From Archaeoglobaceae archaeon (GTDB taxonomy: Archaea; Halobacteriota; Archaeoglobi; Archaeoglobales; Archaeoglobaceae), in assembly GCA_038893835.1 (NCBI GenBank), contig JAWAQR010000027.1:1-15395 (forward strand): a stretch of DNA of 15,395 bases, read 5' to 3'. The notes under the pieces were generated by a model. That model was not told where the DNA came from. It was given only the letters and a program-made list of their open reading frames with translations, and searched no databases. Positions within the stretch are counted from its first letter, which is position 1. Each line of letters begins with the position of its first letter. Position numbers and translations under genes: made by a program. Below, one piece after another: positions 2,958 through 9,176 of this stretch.

Positions 2958-2976
2958 AAAAATTAAAAAATAAAAA
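2958..2976 (-). terminator. Oligo-T terminator of the parA cassette
   Basis: Consecutive T runs on the minus strand (TTTTTATTTTTTAATTTTT) about 20 nt after the stop codon at 2994. Confidence 0.5.
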
Positions 2977-2993
2977 TTTAAACTTAACCTTAA

Positions 2994-3446
2994 CTATGTC
3001 ACTTGTTGGTTTTGTTCTTTAACAAATTTAACAAATTTCTTTAAAATATATTTATATTTAGATATGGTGCTATGTTTAATGGATTTCCCTGACATGTAGT
3101 TCTCGAGAAACTTTTCCGCACTCTCTTCATCAATCTCTAGCTTGTTTTCACGAATCCATGCAACAAATTTGTCGAGTAAATATTTATCTTTTTTACGCCA
3201 TCTATTATCAAGAAGTGCTTGCAGCTTTGTAACGATATCGGTCTCCTGTACTTCTTCTTTCTTAATGTGAGGTTGAGGTCTTAGGTCTGCAGACTGCTCA
3301 TAACCTATCTTCCAAGCTTCATAATAGTATTCTAATATATTTGCCAGCAGTTGACCTGGTGTCATCTTTAAAGTATTGCTGAACTCTATGAGCCATTCCG
3401 CAAGCCGTTTCGGCAATTCTATTTCAAGTTTACTCATCTCCACCAT
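2994..3446 (-). CDS. ParA partner: putative N-terminal ribbon-helix-helix domain plus C-terminal integrase SAM-like (core-binding) domain
   Basis: Starts directly after the parA stop (TAAATG). N-terminus KLEIELPKRLAEWLIEFSNTLKMTPGQLLANILEYYY fits an RHH pattern. C-terminus LLDKFVAWI...IDEESAEKFLENYMSGKSIKHSTISKYKYILKKFVKFV fits the Xer/integrase N-terminal helical bundle pattern. Confidence 0.6.
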   Translation of the reverse strand: MVEMSKLEIELPKRLAEWLIEFSNTLKMTPGQLLANILEYYYEAWKIGYEQSADLRPQPHIKKEEVQETDIVTKLQALLDNRWRKKDKYLLDKFVAWIRENKLEIDEESAEKFLENYMSGKSIKHSTISKYKYILKKFVKFVKEQNQQVT

Positions 3447-4307
3447 TTATTCCACACTCCTAAAGTCGTTCATTCGAGTTAAGACTTCGTTAGTAAAAGC
3501 TTCTGCATCCTGTTTGAGAGCATCATTGCTCCTCAAAGTTCTGTCGAGCGGTACTTCCCACCTTCTAGGTCTGTAAACGAGATCTGTTAACTCGCTGTGT
3601 TTATGAATGATAGTATCAAAAAGAGGTTTTCTGTATACGTTTCTGGTTATAGATGATGGTAATCCGCGAAGTATTTTAATGATGTCGTTCTTTACCTTTT
3701 CGAATCTTTCTTGCTTAATACGCCTATCTACCCTCACCATGACAATCCCAAGTACTTTTAGATTATGTTCATATAACATAACATCTGGAAGGACTTCTTT
3801 AAGGAGAAGTTTTACACCAAGTAAAGATAATTCCTCCATATTTGATGGTATTATTATATAATCGGCTGCATAAAGACCCCATAAAGTAGGTGGAAAGAGC
3901 TCCGGTGGAGTATCGCATACTACAAAGTCGTAGTGCCCAGTGATTGCTGGCTCTCTTGATATCCTTCTCTTAATAGCGTATTGGTCCCATGCTGGTATCC
4001 TTCCACGATATACATCTAGGATGTAGTTTAGTCCAGAAGGAACTAAACCGATCTTACCTTCAACGTTTAACTCAATTTTTTTAATATTAAATTTTTCATC
4101 TCTTGCCATCTCGAATGTTCCGTGATTGACCTTTTCTATATCATTTTGTTTTAAAAAGAGAGATGACAGATGTGCTTGGGGATCCAAATCTAACATCAGG
4201 ACATTGTATCCTTTACTTGCTAATCCATAGGATAACAGAGCTGTTAACGTAGTCTTACCCGTACCACCTTTTTGATTAGTTATAGTAATGACTTTTGGAA
4301 CTGGCAT
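3447..4307 (-). CDS. parA: ParA/Soj-family ATPase
   Basis: Deviant Walker A NQKGGTGKTT, A' motif LMLDLDPQAHLS, Walker B YDFVVCDTPP and ADYIIIP. No N-terminal HTH extension (type Ib/Soj-like). Confidence 0.92.
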   Translation of the reverse strand: MPVPKVITITNQKGGTGKTTLTALLSYGLASKGYNVLMLDLDPQAHLSSLFLKQNDIEKVNHGTFEMARDEKFNIKKIELNVEGKIGLVPSGLNYILDVYRGRIPAWDQYAIKRRISREPAITGHYDFVVCDTPPELFPPTLWGLYAADYIIIPSNMEELSLLGVKLLLKEVLPDVMLYEHNLKVLGIVMVRVDRRIKQERFEKVKNDIIKILRGLPSSITRNVYRKPLFDTIIHKHSELTDLVYRPRRWEVPLDRTLRSNDALKQDAEAFTNEVLTRMNDFRSVE

Positions 4308-4350
4308 TTCTCTTAAGTATAACTAATAACTTACACTTAAACTTTTTTAT
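4308..4350 (-). promoter_or_regulatory. Putative parA promoter (BRE + TATA, leaderless transcript)
   Basis: Minus strand AAAAAAG-TTTAAGTG (4334-4348) lies 26 nt before the ATG, with no obvious RBS. Confidence 0.5.
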
Positions 4351-4598
4351 TTTTATGATGTGCATAATTGCTGAGATTAGGTTTAAGGTCTCGAGCGATT
4401 GTTATCGATAGACAAGGAATAAAAGTTGTTGATAACCTTAGACCTCTTAGTCCAAGCATTCGGCATCTGCATGAGATAACCAATTTATCATTCTCTGCGC
4501 ATACGGAATCTGCATGTTAGAATCTGCTTTGATTTTTATTTACCAACTCAAAGTTGCATGCTAGTTAAATATCATCTTACTCCCAACTTTCTCAATAG

Positions 4599-4671
4599 GG
4601 CCCGGAGCGGGATTTGAACCCGCCTCCTGGGATCCACAGTCCCAGAGGATAGCCGCTACCCCATCCGGGCC
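4599..4671 (-). tRNA. tRNA-His (GUG)
   Basis: Acceptor stem GCCCGGA/TCCGGGC, anticodon arm TGGGA-CTGTGGA-TCCCA, T arm GCGGG-TTCAAAT-CCCGC. Encoded G-1 (4671) opposite discriminator C (4599). CCA is not encoded and there is no intron. Confidence 0.97.
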
Positions 4672-4692
4672 ATTGAAAAGAGTTTTCTTTGG

Positions 4693-4706
4693 ATATAAAT
4701 CTCTTA
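4693..4706 (-). promoter_or_regulatory. TATA box of tRNA-His
   Basis: Minus strand TAAGAGA-TTTATAT about 21 nt upstream of the tRNA 5' end. Confidence 0.6.
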
Positions 4707-5366
4707 CTATATCCTCATCCCTCTAACTCTGTCTATGTCGAACTTCGCTCTATCGCTTATGTGCATAACTGCAATAGTGCCAGCCATCACGGGATCGCTT
4801 ACAACGACATCGCTCACATCTGGAACGCTGCCAAACATGCTTAGGGATATAACTCTTATTCCCTTTTTTCTCAGCTTTTTAACTTCTTCAGCAATCTTCC
4901 CTCCCATCAATCCGCCTGCAAGAACGAGCACTTCAGCCCTATGAAGCCTTGCTACTGCTTTAACAGCTTCTGCTATCTCCTCTTCACCAACTACTGGCAT
5001 AGTGTCTACACTTATCCTTTCTCCTCGCAAATTATGTCTGTCCGCCTCGCTTATCGCACCTATTGCAACTTGAGAAACGAGAGCACCTCCGCCGAGTATT
5101 ATCACTCTCTTTCCATAAACTTGCTCAAAGGGTTTCTCTTCTTCGATTTCAACAACGAAATCCAATTTTTTTATCTTTTCAATCATCTTTTCAAAATTTC
5201 CTCCCTCTATTTCAAAATAAACCAAAGCTCTGCCTGCATGTTCTCCAAATCGGATCGGAAAGCTCTGTGCATATTGTATATTTCCTCCCTCTTCAGCAAT
5301 TATGGTTGTCAAGTCTCTGAGCACACCAATTCTATTTTCAGCAACAATTCTCAAGCCCCTAAGCAT
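4707..5366 (-). CDS. ACT-domain regulator (COG2150 / DUF5612, AF1403-like)
   Basis: N-terminal ACT motif AENRIGVLRDLTTIIAEEGGNI. Conserved euryarchaeal C-domain GKRVIILGGGALVSQVAIGAISEADRHNLRGERISVDT...LVLAGGLMGG...DPVMAG. Confidence 0.88.
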   Translation of the reverse strand: MLRGLRIVAENRIGVLRDLTTIIAEEGGNIQYAQSFPIRFGEHAGRALVYFEIEGGNFEKMIEKIKKLDFVVEIEEEKPFEQVYGKRVIILGGGALVSQVAIGAISEADRHNLRGERISVDTMPVVGEEEIAEAVKAVARLHRAEVLVLAGGLMGGKIAEEVKKLRKKGIRVISLSMFGSVPDVSDVVVSDPVMAGTIAVMHISDRAKFDIDRVRGMRI

Positions 5367-6742: not shown

Positions 6743-8104
6743 ATGATGTGGAGCATATTAAAAGCTCTAAGAGAGAATCCCAGCATTTTATATGAGTCTC
6801 AAAAAAAGCGTGATTTGAGCACAGAAATTATAGACAGAGCAATTGAACTGGATAGAAAATGGAGAGAAAAGCTAAAAGAAACAAACATGCTTAGAAAAAG
6901 AAGAAATGAGCTTTCAAGAATTTTAAAAGAAAAAAAAGATGAAAAAATCGTAGAAGAGGCAAAAATTTTGAGTGAAAATGTAAAAAAGGCTGAAGAAGAG
7001 CTGAAAATGATCGAAGAAGAATTAGAAAAGGTTCTTCTTTCAATTCCAAACATCGTACACGATTCAGTTCCTGTTGGTAAGGATGAGAAAGATAATGTTC
7101 CAATTCGTTACTGGGGGAGAGCAAAAGTCTACTTTGAAGACGTGGACAAATTCCTTAGGATTACAAATGGAATGGCAAGCTATGAGGTCTGCGATTACAA
7201 ACCAGTTGGACATGCGGATGCTGTAGAGCTATTTGGTTGGGCAGATATTGCAAGGGCTGCAAAAGTTGCGGGTTCGAGATTTTACTATATATTTGACGAC
7301 ATAATCTGGCTAGACTTTGCCCTGACATTGTATGCTTTGGATTTTCTATCAAAGAGCGGGTTCAGAATAGTATTTCCACCCTTAATGCTGAAAAGGGAAG
7401 CTTATCGTGGAGTTACAGCTTTCAGCGATTTTGAGGAAGTGATTTACAAAATAGAGGGTGAGGACTTATATCTCATCGCGACAAGCGAGCATCCAATTGC
7501 AGCGATGTACATGAATGAAACGCTCGAAGAAAGTGAATTGCCTTTGCTTTATGCAGGCTTTAGCCCATGTTTCAGAAAGGAAGCTGGAGCGCATGGAAAG
7601 GATACAAAGGGGATTTTCAGAGTCCATCAGTTCAACAAAGTTGAGCAATTTGTCTTCTGTTTACCAGAACAGAGCTGGGAATGGCATGAGAAGCTAATAG
7701 AAAATGCTGAAAGGCTCTGGCAGGGATTGGGGATACCTTATAGAGTTGTAAATATCTGTACTGGAGATCTTGGAATAGTTGCAGCGAAAAAATACGATCT
7801 CGAAGCTTGGATGCCTGCTCAGGCTACATATAGAGAAATGGTGTCCTGCAGCAACTGTACTGACTGGCAAAGTTATAGATTGAAGATAAGGTATGCGGAA
7901 AAAAGAGGAATGCCGAGCAAAGGCTTTGTGCATACCCTTAACTCAACTGCGATAGCAACGACCAGGGCTATAACTGCAATAATCGAGAATTACCAGCTTG
8001 AAGACGGAAGAGTGGAAATTCCGAAGGTTTTAAACAAATACTTGGAGAACATAGATTCTGCACCAAAGGATTACATCATACCAAGAAACGCTCGAAAGGA
8101 GTGA
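6743..8104 (+). CDS. serS: Seryl-tRNA synthetase (bacterial/standard type)
   Basis: N-terminal coiled coil, LIATSEHP, motif 2 CFRKEAGAHGKDTKGIFRVHQFNKVEQF, EMVSCSNCTDWQS and HTLNSTAIATTR. Start moved to the ATGATG at 6743/6746, which follows GAGG. The 6662 start would overlap the divergent gene and its promoter region. Confidence 0.97.
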   Translation: MMWSILKALRENPSILYESQKKRDLSTEIIDRAIELDRKWREKLKETNMLRKRRNELSRILKEKKDEKIVEEAKILSENVKKAEEELKMIEEELEKVLLSIPNIVHDSVPVGKDEKDNVPIRYWGRAKVYFEDVDKFLRITNGMASYEVCDYKPVGHADAVELFGWADIARAAKVAGSRFYYIFDDIIWLDFALTLYALDFLSKSGFRIVFPPLMLKREAYRGVTAFSDFEEVIYKIEGEDLYLIATSEHPIAAMYMNETLEESELPLLYAGFSPCFRKEAGAHGKDTKGIFRVHQFNKVEQFVFCLPEQSWEWHEKLIENAERLWQGLGIPYRVVNICTGDLGIVAAKKYDLEAWMPAQATYREMVSCSNCTDWQSYRLKIRYAEKRGMPSKGFVHTLNSTAIATTRAITAIIENYQLEDGRVEIPKVLNKYLENIDSAPKDYIIPRNARKE

Positions 8105-9176
8105 GAATTTCGCAATCGTTTTTTCTGATCAAAACAACATCTTCAACCCTCACTCCTCCAACTTTTTTGTAGTACAATCCAGGCTCAACTGTAACGACCA
8201 TCCCGCTTTTAAGGATAACATCCACATCCCCAATTCTGGGCTTCTCATGTACTTCAAGACCAACTCCGTGGCCTGTGGAGTGTATAAATCCTTCGCTTTT
8301 GCTACTCTTAAATCCATGACTCTCTATTGTCTCCTTAACGGCAATGTGCACTTCTCTACCATTGATCCCTTCCCTAAGTTTTGAGAATGCGACTTTTTGT
8401 GCATCTATCACAGCCATTAGCATTTCCTTCAGCTCGGCGTTTTGCTCTAGAAGTATCGTTCTCGTGAAATCTGCATAATATCCTCTTTTATTCTTGGGAA
8501 AGACATCTATGAGTATATGTTCCTCTATCGGCCCCTTTCCAAGTTCATGCGGGTCTGCGGATAGCTTTCCTGAAACGCAGATCGTGTTTTCAGCTATTAA
8601 ACCTCTCAACCAGAGTTCTCTTTCCAGAATTTCTCTAGCTCTCTCGCAGGAAATCTTGCGATTTCTGATAATTTTAAGAATCTTTGGAAAAACTTGTACG
8701 ATCTTTTTGCAGTTTTCTCTTATTTCAGCCAGCTCATGATCTCTCTTCACAGCTCTCATCTCTGAAAACGGATTTTCAACGGTTTCAACTTCGAAGTTTT
8801 TCTGCAATTCAAAGGCGAAGAAGGCTGGAAAATCGTTTGGAATCAAAATCTTTCTAGCTCTCCCCTCTTTAAGAACCTGAACGACTATTTCAGCAATCGC
8901 CTTTCTCGGATCACCAACTTCCTTAAGCTTATCTTCATAGCCAAGCATTTCATAACTCGCGATTTCCTTAACTCTACTCTCCCTCACAGCTCTACCAAGC
9001 TCCATTTCGGGGAGAAGTAATAGCTCTGTCCCATCAATTCCTGCAAAGTAGAACATCGTTGAAGTGCTTCGAAACTTAGTTGCGTAAAGGAAATTTGCCC
9101 CTCCTGACTGCATTACAAAGAATTCTGCCGATTTTTCTTTTAGAAGCTCTATTACCATATCAAAATCCTTACCCAT
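8076..9176 (-). CDS. Xaa-Pro peptidase, M24B family
   Basis: Metal ligands in ADPH, IDVFP, GYYADFTRT, HSTGHGVGLEVHE, TVEPGLY and GGVRVEDVV. The true start may be the ATG at 9158. Confidence 0.92.
   Translation of the reverse strand: MGKDFDMVIELLKEKSAEFFVMQSGGANFLYATKFRSTSTMFYFAGIDGTELLLLPEMELGRAVRESRVKEIASYEMLGYEDKLKEVGDPRKAIAEIVVQVLKEGRARKILIPNDFPAFFAFELQKNFEVETVENPFSEMRAVKRDHELAEIRENCKKIVQVFPKILKIIRNRKISCERAREILERELWLRGLIAENTICVSGKLSADPHELGKGPIEEHILIDVFPKNKRGYYADFTRTILLEQNAELKEMLMAVIDAQKVAFSKLREGINGREVHIAVKETIESHGFKSSKSEGFIHSTGHGVGLEVHEKPRIGDVDVILKSGMVVTVEPGLYYKKVGGVRVEDVVLIRKNDCEILTPFERFLV

Follow-up and report, generated by a model that had tools for sequence, protein, structure and literature searches.

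A parA gene and its coupled partner gene in an Archaeoglobaceae genome: a candidate partition cassette with a recombinase-like core-binding domain

We analyzed a stretch of 15,395 nucleotides (nt) from an Archaeoglobaceae archaeon (contig JAWAQR010000027.1; hereafter the window), which makes up one whole contig (15.4 kb) of a 97%-complete genome of 1.17 Mb. The minus strand of the window carries, at 2994 to 4307, a gene for a ParA-type ATPase followed directly by a gene for a 150-amino-acid partner protein, which combines a probable ribbon-helix-helix (RHH) domain with a core-binding (CB) domain assigned by homology to tyrosine recombinases. We read this pair as a type-Ib-like ParA partition cassette in which the partner, a member of an unnamed RHH-linker-CB family, would be the centromere-binding component, and we give this reading slightly more credence than doubt. 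The features of the locus are as follows.

4598 to 4670, minus strand: tRNA-His(GTG) gene, called by ARAGORN and matched by the Rfam tRNA model at 52.5 bits; it bounds the cassette.
4308 to 4597, minus strand: 290-nt noncoding region upstream of parA, with a TATA-like box and candidate operator or centromere boxes.
3447 to 4307, minus strand: parA, encoding a 286-amino-acid deviant-Walker-A ATPase of the pNOB8-ParA type, by Pfam, PHROG, and PDB matches.
2994 to 3446, minus strand: partner gene, 150 amino acids, an open reading frame (ORF) reported here earlier and present as such.
3300 to 3434, minus strand: partner residues ~5 to 49, a probable RHH domain (beta strand LEIELP, then two helices), by profile and ESM Atlas matches.
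3231 to 3299, minus strand: partner residues 50 to 72, a variable polar linker, by the family alignment (A1) and the ratio of nonsynonymous to synonymous substitution rates (Ka/Ks).
3012 to 3230, minus strand: partner residues 73 to 145, a tyrosine-recombinase CB (SAM-like) domain, by Pfam and hhalign.
2958 to 2993, minus strand: T-rich stretch 3' of the partner stop codon, an A/T tandem repeat that, by eye, is a plausible archaeal terminator.
2666 to 2957, no strand assigned: genome-specific noncoding DNA with no long ORF, separating the cassette from a CRISPR leader remnant.

The original prediction, an earlier reading of this DNA, had described two coupled minus-strand genes. Indeed, both ORFs are present, the parA stop codon abuts the partner start codon (TAA directly followed by ATG), and an AGGAG lies 13 nt upstream of the partner ATG. 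The pair had also been given its own promoter and terminator; an A/T-rich TATA-like box is visible ~35 to 50 nt ahead of the parA ATG, near 4335 to 4352, as are T-runs at 2958 to 2985 after the partner stop codon. Both were read by eye, because the promoter and terminator scan uses a bacterial model and was uninformative for the cassette. Besides, the partner strings quoted at the time, the linker EQSADLRPQPHIKKEEVQE and AEKFLENY...IKHSTISKYKYILKKFVKF, were found in the protein.

The C-terminal half of the partner can be assigned firmly, by profile homology, to the tyrosine-recombinase CB (SAM-like) domain. Scanned alone, the window partner gave subthreshold matches to Phage_int_SAM_1 (E 0.0013), SAM_4 (E 0.046), and also SAM_5, together with NCBIfam XerA (E 0.001) and a weak, insignificant match to Pfam Ndc10_N (E 0.14); it had no match among PDB sequences, and in a protein homologue search it retrieved only itself, while the A1 profile retrieved 15 proteins. 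An exhaustive phmmer search of 1.84 billion representatives yielded 49 relatives at E<=1e-3, 26 of them at <=1e-10. The family comprises ~50 clusters at 50% identity, and where its members are named, the annotation is only "hypothetical protein." Alignment A1 consists of two conserved blocks, with the gapped, unconserved polar linker between them. Thirty-two of the 34 full-length members, scanned singly, match Phage_int_SAM_4 (best 4.7e-14) and SAM_1 (best 1.5e-9), and SAM_5 is matched in 16. Furthermore, hhalign of A1 against nine XerA-like integrases of 310 to 332 amino acids from the phylum of the window (Prob 97.4, E 1.2e-11) placed partner residues 73 to 144 on integrase residues 10 to 91; the integrases extend ~220 residues further, where the partner ends. 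A helix of the form S/T-x3-Y-x3-L-x2-F is conserved in the family, with Y131, L135, and F138 in at least 90% of the members, and the ESM Atlas model of residues 41 to 148 matches a 135-amino-acid SAM_4 cluster (TM 0.49/0.53). Thus, the recombinase-like C terminus that had been proposed is well supported by the Pfam and hhalign matches.

A gene with an integrase-like CB domain, lying near a tRNA gene, which is a classic integration site, might be what is left of a tyrosine integrase that lost its catalytic domain and decayed to an N-terminal stub. The relatives argue otherwise: all 49 are 58 to 179 amino acids long (~34 full length, at 129 to 179, and the remainder pieces of 58 to 122), and none is of integrase length. 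The 34 full-length members agree at both ends and share an additional N-terminal domain that is absent from the nine XerA-like integrases. Besides, Ka/Ks for the partner is 0.20 to 0.37 overall in five close pairs (0.04 to 0.21 in the N-terminal domain, 0.13 to 0.50 in the CB domain, and 0.10 to 3.3 on few sites in the linker), which marks it as being under purifying selection. No stop-to-stop frame longer than 77 amino acids and no readable catalytic remnant occurs in the ~900 nt 3' of the partner (2096 to 2993), and a PF00589 search of the genome found nothing inside the window. The absence of a catalytic R-H-R-Y domain from the partner, noted in the original prediction, therefore holds for its relatives also, which do not run on into such a domain. 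We rejected the degraded-integrase explanation on the lengths of the relatives, Ka/Ks, and the lack of a downstream catalytic remnant, and regard it as hardly credible.

The N-terminal half of the partner is probably an RHH domain, as judged from sequence profiles and structural models. The best PDB match of the A1 profile is CopG (1b01/2cpg; E 0.03), with 39 of its 45 residues aligned; one family member (P0004) matches the PHROG CopG-like repressor family (E 0.0034); and the ESM Atlas model of residues 1 to 55 matches RHH clusters (FitA-like, RelB, and Arc) at TM values of 0.50 to 0.62 by row. It had been expected that the two halves would return RHH/CopG and Phage_int_SAM hits, respectively; the latter expectation was firmly borne out, and the former only as a probable assignment. 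The 3 to 20 residues ahead of the RHH strand are unconserved in A1.

The pairing of parA with the partner gene is conserved and is met with again in further archaea from hot springs. In all five genome loci, from metagenome-assembled genomes (MAGs) titled Desulfurococcaceae, Thermoproteota, Desulfurococcus, Infirmifilum, and Thermoprotei, a ParA 54 to 67% identical to that of the window is encoded immediately 5' of the partner gene, in the same orientation, and its gene often runs over the partner start. The same arrangement was found in 9 of 12 metagenome loci (one of which duplicates a genome locus), the ParA identities spanning 54 to 69% across genome and metagenome loci; of the other three, L078 has a MarR/ArsR-like gene in place of parA, and L079 and L080 hold broken partner remnants only. 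When the class around one carrier was surveyed (351 genomes; threshold, <=1e-8), matches were found in 15 genomes, including four new intact pairs (L082, L084, L087, and L089, the last with a ParA only 47% identical to that of the window) and decayed pairs at L092 and L094/L097. The remaining matches had no adjacent parA: fragments at L090, L091, L093, and L096, an intact partner at L088, on a contig that extends only ~290 nt upstream, and a distant 153-amino-acid homologue at L095. In total, 18 of the 21 loci with an intact partner have a ParA of 47 to 69% identity directly upstream, so that the parA linkage for which a neighborhood survey had been advised is now documented. The identity matrices of ParA and of the partner, compared over 14 loci, are correlated (r 0.86; reached in none of 2,000 Mantel permutations), with mean identities of 59% for ParA and 36% for the partner; since kinship inflates such tests, this indicates co-inheritance and not contact.

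The ATPase itself is of a well-recognized type. It matches Pfam AAA_31 (4e-29) and CbiA (6e-19) and a PHROG ParA-like family (2.5e-46), and its top PDB matches are 5u1j and 5k5z (E 5e-18, residues 3 to 278); 7dut, labeled "SOJ protein (Soj)" in the search table and which we take to be SegA, is weaker (2.4e-9). The deviant Walker A motif (NQKGGTGKTT), DLDPQ with the Walker A'/B aspartates, and CDTPP are intact and invariant across 10 aligned orthologues. The entry 5K5Z is pNOB8 ParA-AMPPNP, according to the excerpt of PMC5393062 consulted. By these matches, the window ParA is closest to pNOB8 ParA among solved structures.

Beyond the pair, the neighbors are unconserved and include housekeeping genes, HEPN/NTase, AbiEi, Cas4, PaREP1, a 638-amino-acid PolB, and a resolvase fragment; neither an integrase catalytic domain nor ParB_N occurred among 94 ORFs of 13 related loci in a Pfam scan. 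The cassette would move as a unit, accessory or mobile. Several of these neighbors bear on a reading in which the cassette does not serve segregation, and the RHH-CB protein is a transcription or recombination regulator of mobile elements, for example an immunity or directionality factor at integrase core sites, with ParA being accessory or positioning something other than DNA. The CB domain is homologous to the integrase domain that binds recombination sites, the partner has no recognizable ParA-activating tail, the neighbors at related loci are often defense or addiction genes (HEPN/NTase, AbiEi, Cas4, and PaREP1), and the window copy abuts a CRISPR leader. Furthermore, ORFs with an RHH-like N terminus, recognized by eye and not confirmed as RHH by hhalign, lie directly upstream of XerA-like integrases at 5 of 11 loci. 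However, none of the 13 Pfam-scanned loci has an adjacent integrase, nor does the window contain one, PADLOC yields no defense-family match beyond the P-loop, hhalign finds no relation between the N-terminal domain of the partner and the integrase-linked ORFs, and tight coupling, co-inheritance, and conserved order with a pNOB8-type ParA form the signature of a partition cassette. We consider a purely regulatory role unlikely.

The integrase-linked ORFs are of some interest in their own right. At the five same-phylum loci (L054, L055, L056, L059, and L063), a conserved ORF of 173 to 182 amino acids overlaps the start of the XerA-like integrase gene and has an RHH-like N terminus (..IYVYLPS..W...A......S.SKFV.E.V) and a C terminus that looks like a winged helix. 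Comparison of the partner with these ORFs by hhalign was not significant (Prob 0.6), and an origin of the partner by fusion of such an ORF-integrase pair is therefore unsupported.

A different possibility within segregation is that the CB domain retains the core-site (dif-like or att-like) specificity of recombinases and that the RHH-CB protein tethers ParA to Xer or integrase sites, which we consider quite improbable. If it were true, partition would be tied physically to the resolution of dimers or to integration and excision, and the protein would be a prokaryotic parallel to the recombinase fold at the yeast point centromere (Ndc10). As a separate observation, no tyrosine recombinase was found above the Pfam and NCBIfam cutoffs in the 97%-complete genome, the best candidate being a 226-amino-acid ORF at 23 bits (C7:51576-51914). 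The absence of XerA would be unusual for an archaeon, and the gene may lie in an assembly gap.

Candidate sites for a centromere-binding protein are present upstream of parA in the window. Two 18-nt direct repeats, at 4456 to 4473 and 4499 to 4516, are identical at 16 of 18 positions and 43 nt apart (matched in 0 of 500 dinucleotide shuffles), and the region 4308 to 4597 contains 7 ATGC boxes, where 1.45 are expected (a count reached in 0 of 300 shuffles), and 3 copies of CATGCA, where 0.07 are expected. An inverted repeat, 4275 to 4291/4311 to 4327, spans the parA start codon. From their sequence and position, these repeats and boxes are a candidate operator or centromere. Among the metagenome relatives, L070 has 18 CTAG boxes, commonly at 9-nt spacing, in the 341 nt upstream of parA (1560 to 1900; 5.6 expected; 0 of 300 shuffles), and in L073 TTAGC/GCTAA repeats form clusters downstream, in ~1.4 kb of ORF-free DNA (6800 to 8180); both box arrays might likewise be centromeres.

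Based on these features, we propose that RHH dimers would bind short iterated boxes beside the operon, for which the ATGC/CATGCA boxes and the 18-nt repeats within 4456 to 4516 are the candidates in the window, and that they would thereby repress the promoter as well as nucleate the partition complex. Each dimer would have two CB domains, which might add major-groove contacts and so thicken or bridge the complex; the complex in turn would stimulate the ATPase of nucleoid-bound ParA, so that the cargo DNA is moved.

Several observations weigh against the partition reading and its RHH component. A profile of the N-terminal domain only, searched against the PDB, gave just a CopG-family entry, 9kkd, at E 0.81; the RHH assignment draws on weak sequence scores and on the Atlas's own model (pLDDT 0.68, pTM 0.40); and the DNA-facing strand positions of the window partner are, in our reading, K-E-E, which is unusual for RHH. 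The basic N-terminal tail usual in type-Ib partners is missing, the RHH strand beginning near residue 5, and A1 shows no conserved motif for contact with ParA. Among the cis sites, the upstream regions of 11 loci share no common motif, as is expected if specificity drifts with a fast-evolving partner, and strong box arrays occur in only a few loci. As for the pairing, three intact partners (L078, L088, and L095) have no adjacent parA, and ~8 of ~27 related loci are frameshifted or fragmentary (e.g., L068, L075, L079, L090, L092, and L094), a frequency of decay that fits weak selection in chromosomes. The family was found on no catalogued plasmid, phage, or IMG/VR contig (partner tblastn against PLSDB and INPHARED; IMG/VR), and a search of plasmids with ParA at 1e-20 also returned nothing; PLSDB is largely bacterial, and the plasmid search therefore says little on archaeal plasmids. 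Finally, a replication gene, an integrase, and an att repeat are all absent beside the cassette in the window, so that no cargo replicon is evident.

The window copy stands alone in its own lineage. No orthologous ParA was found in 19 same-genus genomes, which have only a 253-amino-acid paralogue at 28 to 34% identity, and the A1 profile found no full-length partner in 400 other genomes of the same phylum, nearly all other matches being the N termini of integrases. The DNA of the cassette was likewise absent from 91 same-family genomes, where a search with it for spacers or homologues returned just short A/T-rich matches, and in which the adjoining segment 2666 to 2957 had just short A/T-rich matches and one 30-nt leader-flank match. 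The carrier-class sample and the window-phylum sample share no genome among the matches listed, and all five titled relatives of the partner are from Thermoproteota MAGs. In the Thermoproteota, the family is patchy, accessory, rare, and often decaying. The suggestion of an archaeal system in a general sense was thus not upheld: the cassette is a rare accessory one, found in 15 of the 351 class genomes, and the copy in the window is isolated.

Its surroundings are those of a variable site. Similarity to same-genus DNA stops at the 3' end of tRNA-His (blastn against the flanks of 15 relatives ends at 4584 to 4597), the neighbors of tRNA-His differ between the relatives, and no att-type repeat of the tRNA-His gene longer than 11 nt was found. 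On the side of the cassette opposite tRNA-His lies a single CRISPR repeat, at 2500 to 2529 (Rfam CRISPR-DR6, E 0.078, minus strand), and ~135 nt beside it (within 2500 to 2665) match the flank of the last repeat in many same-genus CRISPR arrays, for which reason we call this sequence leader-like. To judge from these matches, the site looks like an array collapsed to its leader and one repeat. Two further leader copies were observed near contig ends of the same genome (C18 and C21). A chimeric or misbinned contig was also considered and is unlikely, since both flanks (443 to 2282 and 4585 to 5366) match same-genus genomes.

Being unique in its lineage and placed between tRNA-His and a solo CRISPR repeat, the window cassette was probably acquired horizontally, as part of an integrated element since lost. 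Most likely, it would be the single intact remnant of a plasmid-like element from a Thermoproteota-type donor, integrated next to tRNA-His, and as such it would be evidence that these cassettes cross phylum boundaries among hyperthermophiles. The same circumstances accord with an inert relic, that is, a cassette that once partitioned a plasmid-like element, was captured at tRNA-His, and is now without cargo or function, with its reading frames still open. It is unique among 92 same-family genomes, the missing replication gene, integrase, and att repeat are as such a relic would have it, it is flanked by a rearrangement breakpoint and a collapsed CRISPR locus, and the related loci listed above are often broken. 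On the other hand, both ORFs and every ParA motif are intact, the candidate upstream repeat boxes are preserved, and a ParA cassette located on a chromosome can act on that chromosome. We regard an inert relic as a real possibility, though a somewhat doubtful one, and retain the partition cassette as our reading in what follows.

Elsewhere in the window, a plus-strand gene at 443 to 2095 encodes a 550-amino-acid protein with an archaeal class-III (pilin-like) signal, weak DUF7289, Pilin_N, and Big_1 matches, and a Cys/Pro-rich segment; it is 66 to 72% identical to proteins of two same-genus genomes, where the gene is inverted relative to an ACT-DUF5612 gene. The intergenic DNA that follows it (2096 to 2252, and 2178 to 2466) is 90 to 92% identical to that of two same-genus genomes, against ~77% for the neighboring coding DNA, and the relatives carry an extra insert of ~57 to 67 nt. 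There was no Rfam match and no covarying structure in a three-sequence RNAalifold analysis.

Among known systems, the cassette resembles type Ib partition modules, such as ParF-ParG of TP228 and delta-omega of pSM19035, but it departs from them in the architecture of the partner. ParG and omega have a flexible N-terminal tail followed by a C-terminal RHH domain, a defining feature of type Ib that the window cassette lacks: here, the RHH domain would be at the extreme N terminus, with the recombinase CB domain behind it. Besides, the window ParA has 286 amino acids and a pNOB8-like C-terminal extension. The likeness lies in a small Walker-box ParA without an N-terminal helix-turn-helix domain, a small, probably RHH partner encoded immediately downstream, and a candidate centromere of short iterated boxes, like the tetramer boxes described for parH in the excerpt of PMC3130281 consulted. 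Within the same archaeal family, two other loci, L003 (G024:C4) and L004 (G021:C75), are classical modules adjoining Orc1/Cdc6-like or winged-helix genes; in them, a ParA of 262 or 264 amino acids is followed by a partner of 115 or 141 amino acids that has a basic tail and, at its C terminus, an RHH-like segment. These modules are probably integrated plasmids, and their partners show the contrast with the window cassette directly.

Three archaeal systems are also comparable. The AspA-ParB-ParA system of pNOB8 supplies the nearest solved ParA, over its full length, and its host is an archaeal hyperthermophile; unlike that system, the present cassette has parA first and then a single partner, and no ParB_N (PF02195) was found in the window genome, AspA not having been searched for. 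SegAB of the Sulfolobales is similar in that an archaeal ParA-type ATPase is encoded on the chromosome and the next gene downstream, which overlaps or abuts it, specifies a small DNA binder that is site specific. However, SegA (taken to be 7dut) is a weaker match to the window ParA than pNOB8 ParA is, and a PDB search with the A1 profile retrieved no SegB chain at E<=10. The signature C-terminal motif of SegB and its conserved, SegA-binding N terminus, as set out in the portion of the preprint consulted (bioRxiv 10.1101/2025.04.15.649018), are absent from the 150-amino-acid partner. SegB is, moreover, reported there to be absent from Desulfurococcus, in which the present partner family does occur. 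HpaAB of Haloferax volcanii pHV3, in the excerpt of PMC13722703 consulted, is alike in having an archaeal ParA-like ATPase and a downstream partner of ~150 amino acids with predicted RHH DNA binding; in HpaB, however, an N-terminal helix contacts HpaA and is followed by a disordered region and an RHH domain at about residue 70, with no CB domain described in that excerpt. The original prediction had held the layout to be unlike SegB, ParG/omega, and AspA-ParB, and this stands, with HpaB added.

With the tyrosine recombinases (XerA/XerC/XerD and phage integrases), the partner shares its C-terminal 75 residues, which align with their N-terminal CB domain. It differs from them in having no catalytic domain, in its added, probable N-terminal RHH domain, and in its linkage to ParA instead of to an att site or the end of a mobile element. 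Yeast Ndc10 of CBF3 (Perriches & Singleton 2012, known to us by its title as cited in PMC5771398) offers a precedent, by analogy only, for a recombinase-derived DNA-binding domain marking a centromere; Ndc10 is a far larger, eukaryotic protein that retains a catalytic-like lobe and acts together with CBF3 and microtubules, not with ParA. As a lead, the ESM Atlas ranks two bacterial clusters of 165 to 166 amino acids first for two family members (scores, 0.86 to 0.91), one of them automatically named RHH/CopG, and the RHH-CB layout may thus occur also in Bacillota and not be specific to archaea.

A literature search returned no description of a ParA partner with an RHH-CB layout, and the CB domain that it adds has not been reported from any ParA partner. 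The partner exemplifies the reuse of a DNA-binding module from mobile elements, and the combination of a recombinase CB domain with an RHH domain would be a new build of centromere-binding protein. Since very few archaeal ParA partners are known, namely, SegB, AspA-ParB, and HpaB, the present family would be a fourth, as yet unnamed.

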